Assembly: GCA_026983835.1 (NCBI GenBank)
Contig: JALSTH010000040.1
Location: forward strand, 510-64,509
Origin: Candidatus Zixiibacteriota bacterium
GTDB taxonomy: Bacteria > Zixibacteria > MSB-5A5 > UM-FILTER-46-8
Length of the DNA stretch: 64,000 nucleotides
Direction of reading: 5' to 3'
Below, one piece after another: positions 11,735 through 50,632 of this stretch (the stretch's first letter is position 1; each line of letters starts with the position of its first letter). The position numbers were made by a program, and so were the translations under genes. Under the pieces are notes generated by a model that saw only the letters and a list, made by a program, of their open reading frames with translations, did not search any database and was not told where the DNA came from.

Positions 11735-12271
11735 ATGAGTAAAAGGCTTGTAGTAGTAGCTATTTTTATTTTCGCCATTTTTATGGCTAACAACAGTTAC
11801 GCCGGTAAAAAAAAGGCGTTTGACTTCACATTAAACGATTTAAATAATAATCCAGTTAGTATGAAATCACTTTTAGGAAAGGGTCCTGTTTATATCGCCT
11901 TTTGGGCAACTTGGTGCAAACCTTGCAAAAATGAACTGGAGATTGTCAGCAAAATCTATGATGAATATAAAGATAGAGGGTTTCAACTTGTCGGTATTAA
12001 TGAAGATGCAGGCCATTCATTAGGAAAAGTAAAATCATTTGTTAAATCCCAAAAATGGAATTTCCCCATTTTATTGGACAAAAATGAAAAAGTAAAAAGG
12101 GATTACAAAGCTTTTGGATTACCATATTCGGTTATTTTGGATGCCGAAGGAAATATCATCCACACCGCTTACGGTTTCCGCCCGGGAGATGAGGTAAAAG
12201 TGAAGGAACTAATCGAATCCCATCTGTTAACGGATGAAGCAGATTCTACCGCAAAGAAAGCAACGGAATAA
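11735..12271 (+). CDS. TlpA/ResA-like periplasmic thiol:disulfide oxidoreductase (thioredoxin fold)
   Basis: Signal peptide, FWATWCKPCKNELE active-site C-x-x-C, overall TlpA-like redoxin layout. RBS GGAGGA upstream. Confidence 0.75.
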   Translation: MSKRLVVVAIFIFAIFMANNSYAGKKKAFDFTLNDLNNNPVSMKSLLGKGPVYIAFWATWCKPCKNELEIVSKIYDEYKDRGFQLVGINEDAGHSLGKVKSFVKSQKWNFPILLDKNEKVKRDYKAFGLPYSVILDAEGNIIHTAYGFRPGDEVKVKELIESHLLTDEADSTAKKATE

Positions 12272-12291
12272 AATCGAAAGGATTTGATTAG

Positions 12292-13791
12292 GTGATTTAT
12301 ATGAATAGAGCTTTTTATTTTTTTATATTTTTACTTTTAACCTTGATAGTTATTCAAACAGTGCAGGCGGATGATGTTTCCATCCAAACCCAAAACAAGT
12401 TGGAATATTATTTAGACAGAAACCCGACCGATTCCGGGGTCCACAACGATAGTTTGCGCAATCGATTGACCGTTGATATGCTCTATGGTAATTTCTATGC
12501 CGGTATATGGTACGAAGCGTTCGAGCCAATTACGAGATTAACCACCGGAGACACATCTTATGAGGGAATTACCCAGAGGTATTTCGGCTGGACGGACGGC
12601 AATGCCGAGATAAGATTAGGGAACTATTATGCGAATTTCAATCGAGGCTTGATACTTCGGGCTTACGAAAATCAGGATGTCCAGATAGATAAGAACTTGG
12701 ATGGGGTGTGGGCGAGCTATCGGGGAAACAAATTCAACTTGGAGGCATTAAACGGGAAGATACTTCTTTCCGAGAACATTTTGCTTTCCCCTCTGATCCG
12801 CACGCGGGAAAATGACATTGTAGCTTTTCGAGGGGAATTGACACCTATCAGTAATATCTCCTTCGGCGGCGCCGCTTTGCGTTATAAAAAGAAAAACTCA
12901 TTTACCTCTGAGATAGAATATACCAATGCGCAGGAAATTACCGCCGGACTTACCTACGGTCCTTTTGATTTCTATGCCGATTATGGCCGTCAAGAAGGTA
13001 ATGAGGGGTTCTATATAGGGAGGCCTGATCTGAAAACAGGCGATGCGACCTATCTGACAGCTTCCTTCTCAACCGGACTTTTTGGCATCTCTGCGGAATA
13101 TAAGAATTATTATAATATGGCTTTGGATTTCAACGCCCCTCCTTCGGCGAACCATCGTGATCAATCGCCCAACGCTTTATGGGCGCAAAGTGGAGCTAAC
13201 GACAGGGGATTTCAGGTCTCGCTGTTTTTCGCTCCGCTTAATAATTGGACCGTTGAAGCCGATATCGCCCAGAGTGGTGAAAGACCCGATGAATACGGAC
13301 ATATCCAACAGAAAATATTCAACAACTTTTATGAGGTGCGGGGATATATCGGTAGGAATATTTTGATATTGAATTACGAACGCACCGATACCGGTGTCGA
13401 AGGATTGGAGCAATTGCCATACGGGGAGTTCACTTATTATCTCGATGATGACAACACTATCACACTGACCGGGCAGGTTAGAAAATTGGAACGCATTCGC
13501 GATTTGTTCGGTAAGGATGATTACAACGAAACCGACTACTCTATCTCATTTTCGCATTCGTATTTTCTTTCTATAACGGTTTACGGAGGCTTTACTTCGG
13601 AGGAGTTTCAACCTTGGGAACAATCCTTCCCCAAACGGAGCGGGGCGATATCATTGGGGCTTCGTTACGGGGAACATGATCTGAATATATTTTACGGGGA
13701 TCAGCGAGGCGGTTTCGTCTGCACCGAAGGCGCCTGTCGTGAAGTTCCACCATTTAGAGGTTTGAAAATAACTTTGGTATCGAGGTTTTAA
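12292..13791 (+). CDS. Outer-membrane protein (probable beta-barrel/porin-like), unknown family
   Basis: Cleavable signal (LLLTLIVIQTVQADD). G/Y/N/F-rich alternating strands. C-terminal ...TLVSRF ends in the aromatic residue typical of BAM substrates. Confidence 0.4.
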   Translation: MIYMNRAFYFFIFLLLTLIVIQTVQADDVSIQTQNKLEYYLDRNPTDSGVHNDSLRNRLTVDMLYGNFYAGIWYEAFEPITRLTTGDTSYEGITQRYFGWTDGNAEIRLGNYYANFNRGLILRAYENQDVQIDKNLDGVWASYRGNKFNLEALNGKILLSENILLSPLIRTRENDIVAFRGELTPISNISFGGAALRYKKKNSFTSEIEYTNAQEITAGLTYGPFDFYADYGRQEGNEGFYIGRPDLKTGDATYLTASFSTGLFGISAEYKNYYNMALDFNAPPSANHRDQSPNALWAQSGANDRGFQVSLFFAPLNNWTVEADIAQSGERPDEYGHIQQKIFNNFYEVRGYIGRNILILNYERTDTGVEGLEQLPYGEFTYYLDDDNTITLTGQVRKLERIRDLFGKDDYNETDYSISFSHSYFLSITVYGGFTSEEFQPWEQSFPKRSGAISLGLRYGEHDLNIFYGDQRGGFVCTEGACREVPPFRGLKITLVSRF

Positions 13792-13859
13792 CTGTTATTG
13801 GGAATCAAATTGGAAAACAATATAAAATCAATAACCCTTTCATCTCTTAGGAGGAAAAA

Positions 13860-14897
13860 ATGAAAAAACTGTTATTGGCAACGGTGGCGATTTTCTTGCT
13901 TTCTTACGGGAATTCCTTTGCCACTCTAAGAATGCCGCTCGGGGAAATGTTCACCAACACCGGCTGCGGACCTTGCTATAACGCCGAGATAGCTCTGGAC
14001 AACATAATGGAGGAGCATTGGGATGATTATTCCCTAATCCGCTATCATGTCAGTTGGCCCAGTTCCGGCGATCCGTTTTATACTTTCAACAGAGCGGAAA
14101 ATATGGACAGGAACGATTATTACAACAATGATTATACCCCTCATCTTTTCATTGATGGCATTGTTGACGGTGAATATTATTACAACAATTGGGACGATCA
14201 ATTTGCGTTGCGCTGGGACACCCCGAGTCCATTGGAAATCGAACTGATAGGTCATTATAATGGCGCTGACCGAGAGAATCAACTGCATATTTCGATGACC
14301 GCCACCGATAATATCAATTTCAATGATTTGCGGCTGTTCTGCGTTTTGATTGAGAATTACATCCAATATAACGCTCCCAACGGTGTGCGGCAACACGATC
14401 AAACTATGAGGGATATAGTCCCCGATTCCGATGGTGAATCATTTACCATAAGCAACGGTGAAACGAAGGAGTTCGATTTTACAATCGCTTTGGACCCGCA
14501 ATTGGCTGAGGATAACTGCGAGATAGTGGTCTTCGTTCAGGATTATTCCACGAAGGAAGTCCTTCAATCGGCAAAGATCGATGCTACCTCCGGCCAGACC
14601 GGAATTGATAACGATGGAAATGCTCTAACCCCAAAGACTACGATACTTTCCCAGAATTATCCCAATCCATTCAACGCCGAAACATCGATAGCTTTCAGTC
14701 TTGACAAAACCTCTTTCGTGAACCTCTCGGTTTACAACCTTAAAGGACAAAAGGTTGCGGAGTTGGCAAATGGTAATTACAAAGCCGGATTATATTCGGT
14801 CAGTTGGGATGCTTCCGAGCAAGCATCGGGAGTTTATTTCTACCGTTTAAGTGCCAACGGCGAGGTTAGAACCAGACGAATGGCTTTAATAAAATAG
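13860..14897 (+). CDS. Thioredoxin-fold T9SS cargo protein, Cys form (HBP35-like), paralog 1
   Basis: Signal peptide ending SFA. EMFTNTGCGPCY (CGPC thioredoxin motif), YTPHLFIDG cis-Pro-like region, C-terminal T9SS sorting domain NYPNPFNAETSIAF...GVYFYRLSANGEVRTRRMALIK. Confidence 0.7.
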   Translation: MKKLLLATVAIFLLSYGNSFATLRMPLGEMFTNTGCGPCYNAEIALDNIMEEHWDDYSLIRYHVSWPSSGDPFYTFNRAENMDRNDYYNNDYTPHLFIDGIVDGEYYYNNWDDQFALRWDTPSPLEIELIGHYNGADRENQLHISMTATDNINFNDLRLFCVLIENYIQYNAPNGVRQHDQTMRDIVPDSDGESFTISNGETKEFDFTIALDPQLAEDNCEIVVFVQDYSTKEVLQSAKIDATSGQTGIDNDGNALTPKTTILSQNYPNPFNAETSIAFSLDKTSFVNLSVYNLKGQKVAELANGNYKAGLYSVSWDASEQASGVYFYRLSANGEVRTRRMALIK

Positions 14898-14931
14898 AGA
14901 AAAAACTTAAAGCTTATTATAACTTGATGAT

Positions 14932-14956
14932 GGGCATTGGGAAATTCCCGATGCCC
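14932..14956 (+). terminator. Hairpin GGGCAT-t-GGGAA-a-TTCCC-g-ATGCCC between paralog 1 and paralog 2; weak terminator/attenuator with no strong U-tract
   Basis: Read from sequence, 11 paired positions. Followed by ccgtcggattaagtttt. Confidence 0.25.
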
Positions 14957-14994
14957 CCGTCGGATTAAGTTTTAATCATTCAAGAGGAAAGATT

Positions 14995-16038
14995 ATGAGA
15001 AAGATATTCTCGGCGCTTGGTTTAGCGGTAATTATATTGCTAACGGCAGGAAGCTCCTTTGCATTAGATCGAGTTGTTATAGGAGAGCTTTTTACCAACA
15101 CTTCGTGACCGTATTGTAAAAATGCTGAATTGCAACTCGATCAGTTGACCGAGGAATACGCCGATACGATCGCCATAATACGCTACCATGTCAATTGGCC
15201 AAGTAGCGGCGATCCTTTTTACCTTTTCAATCCCGATGAAAGTATGAACAGGAACGGTTTCTATGGAAATAGCTATACCCCTCACCTTTTCATAGATGGT
15301 TCTGTGGATGCAGGCTCCAATTATTCCGGTTGGGGGACTATGTTTATGGACCGATATGCTATACCATCGGATTGGCAAATTAACGCTAACGGAACTTTTA
15401 ACCCCATAACGCGGGTAATACACCTTAATATAAGCATCGATCTGGACGGCGAAAATCCGGATGGCGTAGAATTTATAAGAACTGCTCTTACCGAGAGTGA
15501 TTTACATTTCAACGCGCCGAATGGTTTAACGGTATTTAATCAGGTTTTCAGGAATATGATGCCCATTATCTATGGTGTGACTGTCGAACCTGATAGCAAT
15601 GGTCATTTCGAAACTTCTTTCGATTTCACTGTGGATGAGGAAATTATTACCGAAAACTGCGAACTTGTGATGTTTATCCAATCAACGCGGGAACATAAAA
15701 TATATCAGGGGTATAAAATGCCGTTTACCGATTTAATAGAATCTTCGGTATCGGATGATAACGATAATATCCCTAATGAGTTCGCTCTCATCGGCAATTA
15801 TCCCAACCCTTTTAACTCCTCGACGGTAATCGAATTCAAAACCGAAAACCGCGGGAATGTGAAGTTAGGTGTTTATAATATAGCTGGGAAGAAGGTTGTC
15901 GATTTAATTGATGGCGGGTTGCCTGCGGGGTATCATTCTATCACATTTAATGCCGATGAGCTTCCCTCCGGCATCTATTTTTATCGACTGCGTTCCAATG
16001 ATAAAACAGCTGTCGGCAGAATGACTCTCGTTAAGTAA
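14995..16038 (+). CDS. Thioredoxin-fold T9SS cargo protein, predicted selenoprotein (in-frame TGA=Sec at 15106-15108), paralog 2. The six-frame ORF 15130-16038 is an N-terminally truncated call.
   Basis: GAGGAAA sits 5 nt before ATG 14995. The frame is open over 37 codons and encodes a signal peptide ending SFA, then ELFTNTS-TGA-PYCK. This aligns residue-for-residue with EMFTNTGCGPCY of paralog 1, with the TGA at the first Cys. Downstream region is collinear with paralog 1 (IRYHVNWPSSGDPFY, YTPHLFIDG) and ends in a T9SS CTD (NYPNPFNSSTVIEF...GIYFYRLRSNDKTAVGRMTLVK). Confidence 0.6.
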
Positions 16039-16060
16039 TATCGATAATATCCCTGATGTC

Positions 16061-16093
16061 AAGCGGCACGATTTTGCCGCTTGACTTTTTTTA
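16061..16093 (+). terminator. Rho-independent terminator after paralog 2 (AAGCGGC-acgatttt-GCCGCTT + TTTTTTATTT)
   Basis: 7-bp GC-rich stem at 16061-16067 / 16076-16082 followed by a T-tract. Confidence 0.6.
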
Positions 16094-16143
16094 TTTGGCG
16101 ATTTATTTTTTAATTGAATTGATCTTGTCAAGCAGGTAAAATA

Positions 16144-17175
16144 TTGAAAATAATAACAGGTTTATTTCTATCTTTGATGCTTTTGGTGGGGGGTGATTCG
16201 TTTGCGGCGACAAGGGTTGTCGTGGGGGAAATGTTCACCAACACATCGTGAGGGGCTTGTTCCTTAGCCGATATGACTCTCGATCAGTTGACCGAGCAAT
16301 ACAAAACTCAAATCGCCGTAATCCGATACCATATATGGTGGCCCTCATCGAAGGACCCCTATTATCAATACAACCCTGAGGAAGCAACCGCCAGAAATAA
16401 CTTTTATGCCAACCAATACGCCCCGCATCTTTTTATCGAGGGAAGCGATTATGGGTCGGAGTATGAGCAATGGGAAACAGCCTTCCTGCAGAGGATGGGC
16501 ATATCTTCCGATTGGTTTTTCAGCGTAGGGGGTGATTATAACCCCGACAACCGAAATCTTCATTTGGATATCGATATCTTCCTTGAAAATGAAAATCCCG
16601 AAGGGGTGGAGTTCTTACGAATTGCGTTGGTGGAGAATAATATATTCTGGCAGGCTCCCAATGGCGTGGATTGGCATAATCAGGTTTTTCGCGATATGAT
16701 ACCCGATCCGAACGGAGTAGAAATAACTCCCGATAATTCCGGTGTCTTCCAGACGGAAGTCGATTTCACCATAGGGGAAGAGATAGTCCTCGAAAACGCC
16801 GAGCTTGTATTATTTATCCAATCGACACGGGATAAGGAAATACTTCAGGGATACAAGGCTGCCCTTTCGGATTTCGAGATTAACTCGATTGATGATTCCC
16901 AAAATAAACCGATTAACAAGGCAGAGCTTTTTAATTACCCGAACCCTTTCAATTCCTCAACTGAAATTAAGTTCTTTCTCCCCCACAACGGACAAGTAAA
17001 GTTGGAAATCTATAACCTTATCGGGGAAAGGATAGCAACCCCGCTAAATGATAAACTATCCGCAGGGGAACATTCCGTCCTTTTTAGGGCGGATAACTAT
17101 TCTACCGGGGTGTATTTTTGTAAATTATCTTATGGAAAATTAAATCTGATCAGCAAGATGGTCTGTATTAAATAA
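16144..17175 (+). CDS. Thioredoxin-fold T9SS cargo protein, predicted selenoprotein (in-frame TGA=Sec at 16249-16251), paralog 3. The six-frame ORF 16273-17175 is an N-terminally truncated call.
   Basis: TTG 16144 is the first start after an in-frame stop at 16120-16122, with AGGT 6 nt upstream. It encodes LKIITGLFLSLMLLVGGDSFAA (signal peptide ending SFA), then GEMFTNTS-TGA-GACS. The rest is collinear with paralogs 1 and 2 and ends in a T9SS CTD (NYPNPFNSSTEIKF...GVYFCKL...KMVCIK). Alternative ATG at 16177. Confidence 0.55.
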
Positions 17176-17793: not shown

Positions 17794-18882
17794 TTAGTTG
17801 ACGGATTCTGAGGATTTTTCCAATAATTGCTGCGCTCGGTAATATTCCTGCAACTTTTCGATTATCGCACTCAAATCGCCGTTTAATATGGATTCGAGGC
17901 TGTGCAGAGTAAGCCCGATGCGGTGATCGGTAACCCGATTTTGGGGGAAATTGTAGGTGCGGATCTTTTCGGAACGGTCGCCGCTTCCAACCATCGCTTT
18001 CCGTTTTGAGGCTAGTTTTCGTTGTTCCTCTTGATTAGCTTTATCCAGCAGCCTCGCCCGTAGAACTTTCATCGCTTTGTTTTTATTCTTCAACTGCGAT
18101 TTCTCGTCCTGACAGGTAACGATTGTACCGGTAGGAATATGTGTTATTCGTACCGCCGAATCGGTGGTGTTGACCGATTGACCGCCGGGGCCCGAGGAGT
18201 GGAAAACATCAATACGCAGGTCATTCGGATTAATCTCGATATCCACTTCTTCCGCTTCGGGAAGAATCGCCACAGAAGCCGCCGATGTATGAATCCTACC
18301 AGATGCCTCGGTAACCGGAACCCGCTGTACCCTATGAACTCCCGATTCATACTTCAAAACACCGTAAGCCCCTTCCGCTTCAACGCTAAAAATAATTTCC
18401 TTGAAACCGCCAACGCCGGTGGGATTTGAACTCAGGACTTCTAACTTCCACCCCTTTTCCTCGATAAAATGGGAATACATCCGATATAAATCAGCCGCAA
18501 ACAGCGCCGCCTCATCGCCACCGGTACCGGCTCGTATCTCCACAATAGCTTTTTTACGGTCGTTGGGGTCTTTCGGGGCTAATAAATCCCGAAGCTTGTT
18601 CTCCAATTCATCCAACTTGGGAAGAAGCTCCTCTATTTCCGCATCCGCCAATTCCAAAAGATCTTCATCCTTCGAAATTTCCCTCAACTCCTTATCCTCG
18701 TTAATTCTCTCAAGGATCTTTTGGTATTTTTCGGAAATTTTTATAATTTCCTGCAGTTCAGAATGCTCACGGGCGATTTTACTGTATTTTTTATGATCTG
18801 CCAATATTTCGGGATTGGATAGCTCTTCGGTCAGCCTCGTGTGTTTTTCCCTGATATTATCTATAATCGATAAATCAATCAT
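17794..18882 (-). CDS. prfA: Peptide chain release factor 1
   Basis: GGQ motif ([23 protein letters not shown]) and PVT tripeptide ([15 protein letters not shown]), both RF1-specific. Near-collinear with E. coli RF1. Confidence 0.9.
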
Positions 18883-32621: not shown

Positions 32622-35417
32622 TTGATGGGTTTTTGTGATTATATTATTGGAGGTAAAAGAATGAAAAAGTTATTTTTGTTCTCTCTTGTTTCGTTTATGG
32701 CGATCTACGGTATCGCTGCCGCTACCTTTGTCAGCGGCGATATTTCGGGAGGGTGGACTGCGGACAACAACCCATATCTTGTATTAGGGGATTTGCAGAT
32801 TCCTCAGGACTCAACACTGACCATTTATCCGGGAGTATCGATTTATTTTTTGGGGAATTATGAATTAAATGTGAATACTGCAGCTACTTTAGTAGCGCTG
32901 GGTAGCGAAAGCGATTCGATTACCTTCACTACTATCGACACTTCCGTAGTTTGGGGCGGCATAAAAATTCATTCGGCTGAAGCATATCTATCCTTTTGCC
33001 GCCTTAGAAACGGAAAAGCTACAGCATATAACCCCTATTCCGGTGGCGCTGTTTTTTGCGACCATTCTAATCTTCTCTTAACTAACTGCACAATCAACAA
33101 TCACATAGCGAGTTATAATGGCGGTGCAATATATTGCGTCTCCTCAAGTGTAGTAATAAGCAGTAGTATCATAAGCGGGAATTTGTCTTTTGCCGGCAGT
33201 GGTGGAGCAATTTGTTGTGATTCCTCAAGCATAGTCATATTTAATAATACTATCGACGAAAATTCTGCCGGTGAATATGGAGGGGGAATTTGCTGCGTGT
33301 ATTCTAGCGGAGAAATTAGCGAAAACAATATCATCAACAATACGGCCGATAACGCTGGCGGTGGAATTATTTGTTTTCATTCGGACCCGATCATAAGTAA
33401 TAATACCATCAATCATAATTCAGCCATTAATGGTGGTGGTATCAATTGCTGTGGCCATTCAGCCCCGACCGTGAGTGGAAACACTATCGGCAATAATTCA
33501 GCAGATAGCTCTGGTGCAGGAATTTACTGCAATTATTCGAGCCCGAGGATAAGCGATAATTTCATCGTGAACAATTCCATATCCGGTAACTATGGACTAT
33601 CTGGTAGTTATGGTGGCGGGATTTACTGCTATCATTCGAGCCCGAGAATAAACAATAATACTATTGCCAATAATTCTAATTCCGGTGATTATGGCGGAGG
33701 AATTTGTTGCGATTATTATTCTAATCCAAAGATATAATACAATACTATCAGGCATAATTCAGTCGCGAGTTACGGTGGTGGCATCTACTGTTATAGCTCC
33801 AACCCGGACATAAGCCAAAATACTATCGGTAACAATTCAGTCGGTATCGGTGGCTACGGTGGCGGTATTTACTGCTATGGCTCCAACCCGAACATAAGCC
33901 AAAATAATATTGATAACAATTCGGTCGGTATCGGTGGTTATGGTGGCGGTATCTACTGTTATGGCTCTAACCCGAGCATAAGCAAAAATAATATTGATAG
34001 CAATTCGGTCGGTATAAGTGGTTATGGAGGTGGTATCTATTGTAACTCTTCCAATCCGCCAATAAATGGAAACACTATTAAAAATAATGCTGCCGATTTA
34101 TCCGGTGGGGGGATTTACTGCAATTTCTCGAATGTTGAGATAAAGATGAACAAAATCAACAATAATTCCGCCGGGCTTTCCGGTGGGGGGATTTATTGCA
34201 ATTCTTCCCACCCGAGAATTGCCAAAAATACCATCGGCAGCAATTCAGCTTCTATTTCCGGTGGGGGGATTTTCTGCAAATCCTCCCAATCGACAATAAA
34301 TGGAAATGTTATCACCGGCAACAGAGCCGATTACTTCGGTGGCGGGCTTTATCTTATCTCTTCCAACCAAACGACAATGAGCAATAACACCATTAGCAAC
34401 AATACTGCCCATTTCTATGGTGGTGGACTTTACAGCTGTAATAATTCCGCTATAAAGGTTGTTAATACTATTTTGTGGGCTGACTCCTCCGCCCGCAACA
34501 GCGAAATCTATTTGGAAAACGATTCCATAGCTATATCTTTTTCCGATATACAGGGTGGATGGGAAGGTAGTTGGAATAATAATATGAACCCGTTATTTGT
34601 CGATCCTGAAAATGGGGATTATCATCTGCAGGAGGGTTCTCCCTGTATAGATGCCGGCGATCCGAACTCGCCCTTTGACCCGGATAGCACAATCTCCGAT
34701 ATGGGAGCGCTTTATTTCTATCAGGGTGGGGGGAATGGTATTTCTATCATAGCCGACCCCATCGATCCGCCGATTATCGTTTCCCAAGGCTCCAGTTTCA
34801 ATTATTACGGGTATCTCATTAACACGACAGATACGGATTTGACTACCGATGTTTGGTGCAGAACATTGATGCCTGATGGTTCTCTATCCGACACGATTCG
34901 CGTATGGAGCGAGGTGTCGGTGGCGGCTAATAGCACCATAGAGGATTTTATTGTTCAATATATTCCTACCTATGCCTCTCTGGGCGATTATTTATATATC
35001 ATTTATGACGGGGATTATCCGAATATTATGAATTCTGCTTATTTCCCCTTCACGGTTATTGCGGCTACCGAAGGATTAGCGGGGAGTGATCGTGGCTGGG
35101 AGGTAAGTGGGTGGGGAGGGAAAGCGGACGATATGGATGCTGTAAACATCCCTGCCAAATTAACCTTGAAGGACAACTATCCGAATCCGTTCAATGCGCA
35201 GACCACTATTACCTATCAACTGCCAAAAGCAGGCGATGTTTCCTTGGATATTTACAATCTAATGGGACAGAAGGTGGCTACGCTAGTCAACGGCAATGTT
35301 GAAGCTGGTTCACATACGGTTGTTTGGAATGCCGGCTATTATTCCAGTGGGATTTATTTCTATAAACTAACCGCCGGCAATAAAGTCTTCACCAAACGGA
35401 TGACACTGCTGAAATAG
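32622..35417 (+). pseudogene. Right-handed parallel beta-helix repeat T9SS cargo protein (adhesin-like), one continuous 932-codon frame interrupted by a single in-frame TAA at 33735-33737. The ORF calls 32622-33737 and 34146-35417 are its two pieces.
   Basis: Signal peptide. Dozens of ~22-aa N-x-[AS]-x-x-GGGI[YFI]C-x-x-S-x-P-x-I-x-x-N-x-I repeats continue in the same frame on both sides of the stop (…SNPKI*YNTIRHNSV…); I hand-translated 33738-34160 with no further stops. C-terminal T9SS CTD NYPNPFNAQTTITYQL...GIYFYKLTAGNKVFTKRMTLLK. Confidence 0.55.
33740..34060 (+). repeat. Near-identical 66-nt (22-codon) tandem DNA repeats inside the beta-helix gene
   Basis: Three to four consecutive units such as ggtatcggtgg(c/t)ta(c/t)ggtggcggtat(t/c)tactg(c/t)tatggctc(c/t)aacccg(a)a(c)cataagc(c)aaaataatattgata(a/g)caattcggtc, encoding YGGGIYCYGSNP.IS.NNID.NSVGIGG. 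Confidence 0.6.
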
Positions 35418-49828: not shown

Positions 49829-50632
49829 TTGAGCAATATGAATAACAACCGAAAACTCCAGATGATTTTTATCGCCCTTTTGATTTTTACTTTCGCAATC
49901 TCCGTTGTCGGCTTTTATGGGTGTGGTGCGGAGAATATAAAACCGGTAGCGAGTGCGAAGGATCAGCTCAAGCGGGCGATGGATCTATACAATAAAAAGA
50001 AATACTATAAGGCGGAAATCGAGTTCCAAAAATTCGTTTACAATTATCCCGGGGTCGGTGCGGTCGATACCGCTCAATTCTATTTGGCGATGTCTTATTA
50101 CAAGGATAAGGATTATGCTTTGGCCGCCGGAGAGTTCAAAAGGTTTTTGTCCTCTTTCCCCTCATCCGAATTTTCCGATGACGCCCAATACCGATTGGCG
50201 ATGTCCCATTATCATCAATCCCCAAGCTATCCGCTCGATCAAACCGAAACTTATATGGCGATTAATGGGCTTATCAGTTTCTTGGATACTTATCCCAACA
50301 GCGGATATGCCGACTCCGCTTCGGTTCACCTGCAGGAACTACGCAATAAACTATCGCATAAGCTGTTCAGCACAGGGAGGTTGTACCAAAAGATGGGATA
50401 TTATGATCCCGCGATAATGTATTATAACAAACTTTTGGAAGATTATCCTAATTCCCCTTTCGCTGAAGAATCGGTTTTTCGTGCGGGGGAATGTTATTTG
50501 AAGTTGGAGAAGTATATTCCCGCCCGGGAGAAACTGCTGAGTTATGTGGATTCCTATAAAAACGGAAAATTCCATAAAAAGGCGGTTTCTCTGCTTCGAA
50601 AAATAGAGGACATTAAAAAAGCTGAAAATTAG
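49829..50632 (+). CDS. bamD: BamD/YfiO-like TPR lipoprotein
   Basis: Lipobox-like GFYGCG after the signal. TPR-like repeats (YYLAMSYYKDKDYALAAGEFKRFL, YRLAMSHY, IMYYNKLLEDYPNS). Confidence 0.6.
   Translation: MSNMNNNRKLQMIFIALLIFTFAISVVGFYGCGAENIKPVASAKDQLKRAMDLYNKKKYYKAEIEFQKFVYNYPGVGAVDTAQFYLAMSYYKDKDYALAAGEFKRFLSSFPSSEFSDDAQYRLAMSHYHQSPSYPLDQTETYMAINGLISFLDTYPNSGYADSASVHLQELRNKLSHKLFSTGRLYQKMGYYDPAIMYYNKLLEDYPNSPFAEESVFRAGECYLKLEKYIPAREKLLSYVDSYKNGKFHKKAVSLLRKIEDIKKAEN

Follow-up and report, generated by a model that had tools for sequence, protein, structure and literature searches.

We analysed a stretch of 64,000 nucleotides (nt) from a Candidatus Zixiibacteriota genome (contig JALSTH010000040.1; this whole 64-kb stretch is what we call the window), in which three neighbouring paralogous genes encode thioredoxin-like proteins. 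In the first paralogue (p1), the active-site motif begins with a cysteine (Cys) codon. In the other two (p2 and p3), an in-frame TGA stands in its place and is presumably read as selenocysteine (Sec). Our subject is a block of 18 bases that p2 and p3 share downstream of the TGA, and which very probably acts as a bacterial selenocysteine insertion sequence (SECIS; bSECIS for the bacterial type). The genes and elements concerned are the following.

13860-14897, + strand: Cys paralogue (p1), motif TNTG-C-GPC, used as an internal control
14995-16038, + strand: Sec paralogue 2 (p2), from ATG 14995 to TAA 16038 through TGA 15106, motif TNTS-U-PYC
15106-15108, + strand: in-frame TGA of p2, aligned with the first Cys of CxxC, presumed Sec codon
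15136-15153, + strand: putative SECIS hairpin of p2, with 5' arm 15136-15142, AGUU loop 15143-15146, 3' arm 15147-15153 and an A15140·C15149 mismatch
16144-17175, + strand: Sec paralogue 3 (p3), from a putative start at TTG 16144 to TAA 17175 through TGA 16249, motif TNTS-U-GAC
16249-16251, + strand: in-frame TGA of p3, aligned with the first Cys of CxxC, presumed Sec codon
16279-16296, + strand: putative SECIS hairpin of p3, with AGUU loop 16286-16289 and an A·C mismatch at 16283/16292

In both p2 and p3, the TGA is in frame with a long downstream open reading frame (ORF) and with 35-37 open codons upstream. The likely start of p3, TTG 16144, has an AGGT 6 nt upstream. TGA is ordinarily a stop codon in this DNA, since 11 of the 52 long ORFs of the window end in it. 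One more candidate for TGA read-through, at 49829, was rejected: a BamD/YfiO gene merely starts there right after the stop codon of the preceding gene.

The block, CTCGATCAGTTGACCGAG, has two exact copies in the window, both on the + strand, at 15136-15153 and 16279-16296. No third site appears in the window at up to 3 mismatches, for an expectation from shuffles of 0.03. Both copies begin 30 nt past the T of the TGA (15106 and 16249) and encode LDQLTE, as the original prediction from this DNA had reported, in two genes that otherwise share only 54% of their nucleotides and 50% of their amino acids. The 18-mer is the longest exact run between p2 and p3 (the runner-up has 12 nt), and the identity breaks off precisely at its two borders, which are the ends of the stem described below. 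The equivalent codons of the Cys paralogue read CTGGACAACATAATGGAG, so that the reported difference at that place stands; the string quoted for it was one codon off, which is immaterial. A different exact run of 20 nt, GGGGAAATGTTCACCAACAC (13941-13960 and 16225-16244), is common to p1 and p3, just 5' of the Cys/Sec codon, and is missing from p2. Chance, codon bias or gene conversion may account for this sharing. Because p1 and p3 have such a run, and because the naive chance of at least 6 consecutive identical codons between paralogues is about 0.05 (from 23% identical codons), the 18-mer by itself is weak evidence. The decisive evidence on its function is that from other genomes.

As RNA, the 18-mer is an imperfect palindrome. 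Numbering nucleotides from the U of UGA as 1, which is possible because family genes have no insertions or deletions between the Sec/Cys codon and the LDQL motif, nt 31-37 (CUCGAUC) pair with nt 42-48 (GACCGAG) and enclose the tetraloop A38-G39-U40-U41. The seven stem positions of the window copies give 4 + 2 basepairs (bp) around an A35·C44 mismatch, with no lower stem and no conserved extension. The stem begins 27 nt after the UGA, and 34 nt (nt 4-37) separate the UGA from the loop, in the two genes of the window as in every gene of class A, the class of relatives with this hairpin. The minimum free energy (MFE) structure from RNAfold contains the 18-mer hairpin in both genes. Its pair probability is 0.92-0.98 in p2; with only nt 16-75 free it is 0.87-0.93 in p3, and the range given for the hairpin at +31 to +48 under that restriction is 0.84-0.93. 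The Cys paralogue p1 has no such hairpin and pairs at 3 of the 7 stem positions.

This is a different fold from the one originally drawn. The hairpin GCAACU/AGUUG(a)C has -2.1 kcal/mol in p2 and +6.1 in p3, where it cannot form; it is not conserved, and RNAfold never selects it. The longer CGUAUU/AAUACG helix that was to enclose it is present in p2 (with AATACG at 15155-15160, not 15156-15161), but in p2 only, and is not conserved either. The folding that had been proposed as a check does give a hairpin in both genes, formed by the 18-mer itself and weak (-4.0 to -5.6 kcal/mol).

For the comparison with other genomes, we scanned genome and metagenome collections with the peptide pattern [HF]xQ[TV][FM]R[DN][MI][IMV]P. 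Its place is some 145 codons downstream of the Sec codon, which keeps the sampling independent of the RNA motif. The scans gave 102 loci. A family hidden Markov model (HMM) applied to six-frame ORFs with TGA read through then yielded 121 non-identical genes with an intact N-terminus. The family occurs in Zixibacteria, Gemmatimonadota, TA06, Fermentibacteria and unclassified metagenome-assembled genomes (MAGs). At the column of the first Cys, 81 of the genes have TGA and 40 have TGY. The TGA always falls on the Cys column, and the frame is kept on both sides of it, signal peptide included, throughout the 81 genes and many lineages.

Class A consists of the TGA genes with at least 6 of the 7 pairs at nt 31-37/42-48. 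It has 32 members with 21 distinct 18-mers, such as CUCGAUC-AGUU-GAUCGAG, CUCGACC-AGUU-GGUCGAG, CUCAGCC-GGUU-GGCUGAG and CUCGUUC-AGUU-GAGCGAC. The 18-mer of the window itself recurs, identical, in other organisms (L005, L035, L007). In the class A alignment 91.5% of the cells are paired, against 16-44% with the partners slid by 1-3 columns, a percentage that is partly circular, as class A was chosen by pairing. The observed pairing score is reached by none of 500 shuffles. At four of the seven pairs both partners change (GC/AU/GU, AU/GC/UG, CG/UA), and RNAalifold recovers this helix and no other conserved one in nt 1-72. Pairs of amino acids vary together with the stem, as in D(GAU)-I(AUC), D(GAC)-V(GUC), S(AGC)-A(GCU) and V(GUU)-S(AGC), and also G/A; selection at the protein level does not predict such pairing-preserving changes. 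The class A stems include 11 G·U cells and the loop is asymmetric, hence the element is specific to the sense-strand RNA. Within the loop, U41 never varies, and the conservation of G39 and U40 is at least 90%.

The hairpins of class A relatives have -8.7 to -10.7 kcal/mol. The A·C mismatch at stem pair 5 recurs in six class A genes (the window copies and L005, L035, L084, L078), and it brings the stability from about -9 down to about -4 kcal/mol. A second, small hairpin is possible in class A, with a triloop and 5 bp at nt 18-22/26-30, abutting the main one (68.8% paired, six pair types). The window copies (15123-15135 and 16266-16278) form 3 and 4 of its 5 pairs, and its loop has no conserved G. 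With partial support in the relatives and poor formation in the window copies, this helix was left out of the element.

The hairpins go with the TGA, a contrast that, like the covariance model search that follows, is free of the circularity of the paired percentage. Either hairpin A or hairpin B (introduced below) is found in 72 of 81 Sec genes and 5 of 40 Cys genes (Fisher p = 8e-17), and hairpin A alone in 32 of 81 and 1 of 40 (p = 6e-6), the sole Cys gene that has it being a near-copy of a Sec paralogue. The synonymous sites, which had been suggested as a place to look, follow the same division: Gln13 is CAG in 62/65 Sec genes versus 8/13 Cys genes, and Leu14 is TTG in 46/69 versus 4/24. 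We also built a covariance model (R1) from 30 class A hairpins, excluding those of the window. In the 64-kb window it finds just the two sites, 15132-15157 (32.4 bits, E 1.6e-6) and 16275-16300 (32.0 bits); the next-best match in the window has 11.8 bits, and the antisense strand gives 8-11 bits. In 448 kb of related loci, all matches of at least 27 bits fall in family genes. A simpler scan of the window for hairpins with an [AG]GUU tetraloop gives 19, compared with 11.5 expected, and only at the two known sites does the family's TGA-to-loop distance of 37 nt occur; for four others, a TGA in whatever frame lies 21-39 nt upstream.

A second class of hairpin, class B, is found in 40 TGA genes (L010, L014, L015, L017, L024, L054 and others); the complete Zixibacteria chromosome CP070813.1 has three paralogues of this class. 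It has the form GCUGAUCUG-GUCU-UAGAUCAGY at nt 19-40, typically encoding ADLVLDQL, and it lies 12 nt upstream of the class A position. It is 96.7% paired, shows compensatory changes at 3 pairs and, with -10.1 kcal/mol, is more stable than the hairpins of the window. The two classes are alike in gene family, in the UxxC context, in the LDQ codons (GAUCAG) and in having G-U in the loop. They differ in the use of GAUCAG, which is the 3' arm in class B and the 5' arm plus the start of the loop in the class A hairpins of the window. The self-complementary GAUC pairs upstream in class B and downstream in class A, which is why the class B loop is 11 nt nearer the UGA. Seven further, divergent TGA genes have unrelated hairpins with loops containing GU or GG at about +21 to +30. 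A Gemmatimonadetes locus (L042:1023 and L042:3103) has a class A hairpin with its loop at +38-41 and, in a paralogue, an unrelated hairpin of 7 bp with a GGA loop at +21-23; holding both positions, this one genome apparently serves both spacings.

Some members of the family depart from the usual arrangement at the UGA itself. In L084:767-776, the motif is U-G-L-U, where two in-frame TGA, spaced by 9 nt, precede just one class A hairpin. In L037:3109-3160, the motif is S-G-G-G-G-U, and the distance from the TGA to the hairpin, a class A one that is typical in other respects (34.4 bits), is shorter by 9 nt; this is a spacing variant of natural origin or else a frameshift from sequencing. In a Zixibacteria MAG (L007:3061-3125, and L050), a TGA and the identical 18-mer are followed by a frame broken about 20 codons past the TGA; the gene is a pseudogene, or the assembly is wrong there. 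The codon that precedes the UGA (15103-15105 and 16246-16248 in the window) is strongly biased: when it encodes Ser it is TCG in 39/43 Sec genes versus 5/21 Cys genes, and there is a G at position -1 in 61/81 Sec genes. The TCG-UGA bias may mean that the 5' context influences how Sec is decoded.

What is observed here is the hairpin itself, where it lies, how its arms covary and that it is confined to genes with a TGA. Together these observations speak for the function that the original prediction had assigned to this place: only in the TGA members is the RNA constrained, at a set distance from the TGA, and the stem has compensatory changes and the loop a G. We conclude that the 18-mer is very probably, with a probability of about 0.8, a functional bSECIS hairpin for the UGA 30 nt upstream.

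The way in which it would act follows what is established for Sec decoding in bacteria. A ribosome that has the UGA in its A site would cover about the next 12-15 nt of the mRNA; because it reaches only that far, the hairpin at +31 to +48 would remain outside the entry channel and stay folded. Loaded with GTP and Sec-tRNA(Sec), SelB would use its C-terminal winged-helix domains to bind the upper stem and the loop (G39, U40), and would deliver selenocysteine in competition with release factor 2.

Several observations weigh against a SECIS function, and we collect them here. The hairpins of the window have little stability: folded by themselves they reach -4.0 kcal/mol, and within 30 nt of sequence -4.5 to -5.6, short of the -7.5 kcal/mol of the bSECIS consensus as it is summarised in the source discussed below; they miss it because of the A·C mismatch. 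The 65-nt regions fold with -13.7 and -12.2 kcal/mol, partly from non-conserved extra pairs, and their stability does not clearly exceed that of shuffles (z -1.74 and -0.44). In p3, the pair probability falls to 0.43-0.45 in full context. A loop 34 nt from the UGA is near the upper limit of the bSECIS model; the class B loop is 11 nt and that of E. coli fdhF 16 nt nearer to the codon. One class A member (L001:3648) has an AAUU loop, without the G. The partial circularity of the class A percentage counts on the same side. Finally, there is no selA, selB, selC or selD and no tRNA gene in the 64-kb window, and 45 related loci have no Sec machinery or tRNA gene either.

Among the other explanations, the one that fares best supposes that the hairpin is conserved in the mRNA for a different purpose (pausing of ribosomes, stability of the mRNA or translational coupling), and that the SelB element is elsewhere, for instance nearer the UGA. 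The 27 nt to the stem are long, the loops of the 40 class B genes and of the seven divergent Sec ones lie at about +21 to +30, and many class A genes have the extra small hairpin at nt 18-30, all of which would suit an element closer to the codon. However, RNAalifold shows no conserved helix there in class A, and the nt 18-30 hairpin is the one that forms poorly in the window copies and has no conserved G in its loop. It is hairpin A that has the G-U loop signature within the range of 16-37 nt, and that is absent from the Cys paralogues of the same operons. We regard this explanation as unlikely.

We find it very unlikely that the block has no RNA function at all, and that it reflects protein-level conservation of the LDQL of helix alpha-1, together with biased codon use or with gene conversion over a short tract between the tandem paralogues. 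LDQL is indeed common in the Cys homologues too, p1 and p3 do share their 20-nt run elsewhere, and a run of this length between p2 and p3 could arise by chance about as often as stated above. But the Cys genes use varied codons for the same amino acids, the pairing survives amino acid changes (LSRL, LGRL, LVQL), the same 18-mer is present in other organisms, and the identity of p2 and p3 ends precisely at the stem ends.

A further possibility is that the TGAs are true stops, the genes being pseudogenes or starting downstream (TTG 15130, ATG 16273) as they are publicly annotated, with a hairpin irrelevant to decoding. Gene callers and NCBI annotate only downstream parts of 230-300 amino acids (aa), and the frame of L007 is broken after the hairpin. 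Such truncated products would be without signal peptide and CxxC active site, while 81 genes in many lineages keep the 35-37 upstream codons in frame and have the TGA on the Cys column without exception; we give this possibility scant credence. Least credible of all is a palindrome acting as DNA, bound by a protein or else methylated or cut at its GATC, which would suit the imperfect palindrome with its GATC, but many class A members have no GATC (for example CTCGACC...), G·U pairs are A·C mismatches on the opposite strand, the covariance model is strongly strand-asymmetric, and the element keeps a fixed codon distance from the TGA in TGA genes only.

Taking the 18-mer as a bSECIS, the two classes suggest a scenario that we put forward only tentatively, and which we think more doubtful than not: a SECIS 'register flip'. 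The GAUC core within the LDQ codons would pair upstream in one lineage (class B, loop at +28-31) and downstream in the lineage of the window (class A, loop at +38-41), and the loop bound by SelB would have shifted 11 nt, to the outer limit of the spacing that is tolerated. This would leave a minimal SECIS of 18 nt, possibly helped by the abutting nt 18-30 hairpin as a spacer and by the strong TCG-UGA context. It would be found in tandem arrays of two to four Sec paralogues that encode surface-directed selenoproteins of type IX secretion, a branch missed by current curated models and annotations.

The three proteins have one domain order: a signal peptide, a thioredoxin (Trx)-like N-terminal domain, an Omp28-like domain, and a C-terminal type IX secretion system (T9SS) sorting domain. 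Pfam and NCBIfam give PF11551 (Omp28-like), PF18962/TIGR04183 (C-terminal sorting) and, for p2, weak matches to DUF1223 and glutaredoxin. The N-termini are hydrophobic, and the proteins have the architecture of T9SS cargo (signal peptide, functional domain and type A C-terminal domain), which predicts their secretion. An AlphaFold (AF2) model of the Cys paralogue has a pLDDT (predicted local distance difference test) of 82.5. In this model, C36xxC39 lies between strand 27-32 (beta-1) and the N-terminus of helix 39-53 (alpha-1), the classical position of a thioredoxin active site. Its top Foldseek match in the PDB is HBP35 of P. gingivalis (5y1a, E 9e-16). The products of p2 and p3 would be two exported, type IX secretion-sorted thiol-disulfide oxidoreductases of HBP35/Omp28-like type, with a UxxC active site.

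Upstream of p1, Pfam and NCBIfam identify the following genes.

11735-13791, + strand: upstream genes of the cluster
11735-12271, + strand: TlpA/ResA-like redoxin
12292-13791, + strand: DUF6029 protein

The cluster at 11735-17175 therefore reads TlpA/ResA-like redoxin, DUF6029, one Cys paralogue and tandem Sec paralogues. This gene order recurs on three Zixibacteria-type MAG contigs (L001, L002, L004); over the window and these contigs, the tandem Sec paralogues number two to four. The conserved cluster suggests a dedicated extracytoplasmic thiol/selenol redox system. Between p2 and p3 there is a strong hairpin like that of an intrinsic terminator (16058-16095, 11 pairs and a T-run), with promoter-like hexamers at 16081-16154 after it, and p3 may be transcribed separately. 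A gene for a class I peptide chain release factor adjoins the cluster (17794-18882, - strand; PCRF and RF-1 domains), followed by a DUF1385 gene. It has P-V-T where RF1 has P-x-T, is probably RF1, and has no obvious link to recoding. The window also has a second T9SS cargo gene, at 34146-35417, with a NosD-like domain and Por_Secre_tail.

Public annotations leave out the presumed Sec codon. Gene calls cut p2 short (P0001, 230 aa), and the relatives' calls are mostly of 290-300 aa, beginning just past the CxxC position, which is the signature of missed selenoproteins. NCBI annotates the branch as a truncated 'T9SS type A sorting domain-containing protein'. Because the genes are currently truncated at the UGA, the called products have neither signal peptide nor active site. 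Two genes of the window are corrected by the present analysis, as are dozens from Zixibacteria, Gemmatimonadota, TA06, Fermentibacteria and MAGs without classification. It adds a covariation-supported bSECIS to the selenoprotein catalogue, in a branch outside the coverage of NF045500. The two hairpin registers, the displaced UGA and the double UGA are natural experiments on the distance between SECIS and codon. For the biology, the proteins suggest that uncultured sediment bacteria carry out selenium-dependent redox reactions at their cell surface.

Among known elements, the reference is the SECIS of E. coli fdhF and fdnG, studied by Hüttenhofer, Böck and co-workers, whose loop reportedly exposes G-U for SelB and of which a minimal hairpin of about 17 nt is said to suffice. 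In fdhF, a helix reportedly follows right after the UGA, with the SelB-binding mini-helix 11 nt after it, a loop GGUC (G23, U24) and a bulged U17. The window element shares with fdhF and fdnG a hairpin loop that exposes G-U. It is not fdhF-like in other respects: its stem starts 27 nt after the UGA, its loop is AGUU (G39, U40), and it has an A·C mismatch and no bulged U.

Rfam has no family for the bacterial SECIS and no match at the gathering score in the window; between 14900 and 16500, it gives only chance-level matches (E at least 0.39), away from the hairpins. The closest description is the bSECIS consensus of bSECISearch (Zhang and Gladyshev 2005), which, in the summary of PMC13188914, is a stem-loop located downstream of the Sec UGA, within the coding region, with a loop of 3-9 nt that has a G in its first two positions followed by U, an upper stem of 4-16 bp, a UGA-to-loop distance of 16-37 nt and an MFE of at most -7.5 kcal/mol. 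So far as that summary goes, and apart from the energy, the hairpins of the window fit. They lie in the coding region after a UGA that aligns with the Cys of homologues, their 4-nt loop A-G-U-U has a G at position 2 and then U, and both the stem length (4 + 2 bp; 7 bp in relatives) and the spacing of 34 nt agree with the consensus.

At the protein level, the literature on selenoproteins of Zixibacteria, of the Omp28 type or of the T9SS gave nothing relevant beyond GOS_C, the Omp28-related selenoprotein (NF045500), which has UxxC in a Trx-like fold, an Omp28-like domain, many Cys homologues and a predicted bSECIS (PMC2398784, PMC13188914). The window proteins resemble it in the Trx-like fold, the U-PY-C and U-GA-C motifs and the Omp28-like domain (PF11551). 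With the NF045500 HMM, the three paralogues score 45.3, 47.2 and 59.2 bits; of seven other diverse family members, six score 40-75 bits and the seventh has no match. As these scores are below the cut-off of 200 bits, we rejected membership in NF045500. The window proteins are distant, sub-threshold relatives of GOS_C, in a separate, un-modelled sister branch with a T9SS sorting tail. HBP35 of P. gingivalis is a thioredoxin-active T9SS cargo that joins a Trx domain to a T9SS C-terminal domain (PMC4674972); it differs in having Cys rather than Sec, and the sequence identity is about 15%. Seen beside these systems, the probable SECIS described here is a fairly ordinary, well-supported example of a known signal, which does not overturn current understanding. 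It is moderately interesting for its two registers on one palindromic core, its tandem Sec arrays and the type IX destination of the proteins, and it leaves existing views as they are.

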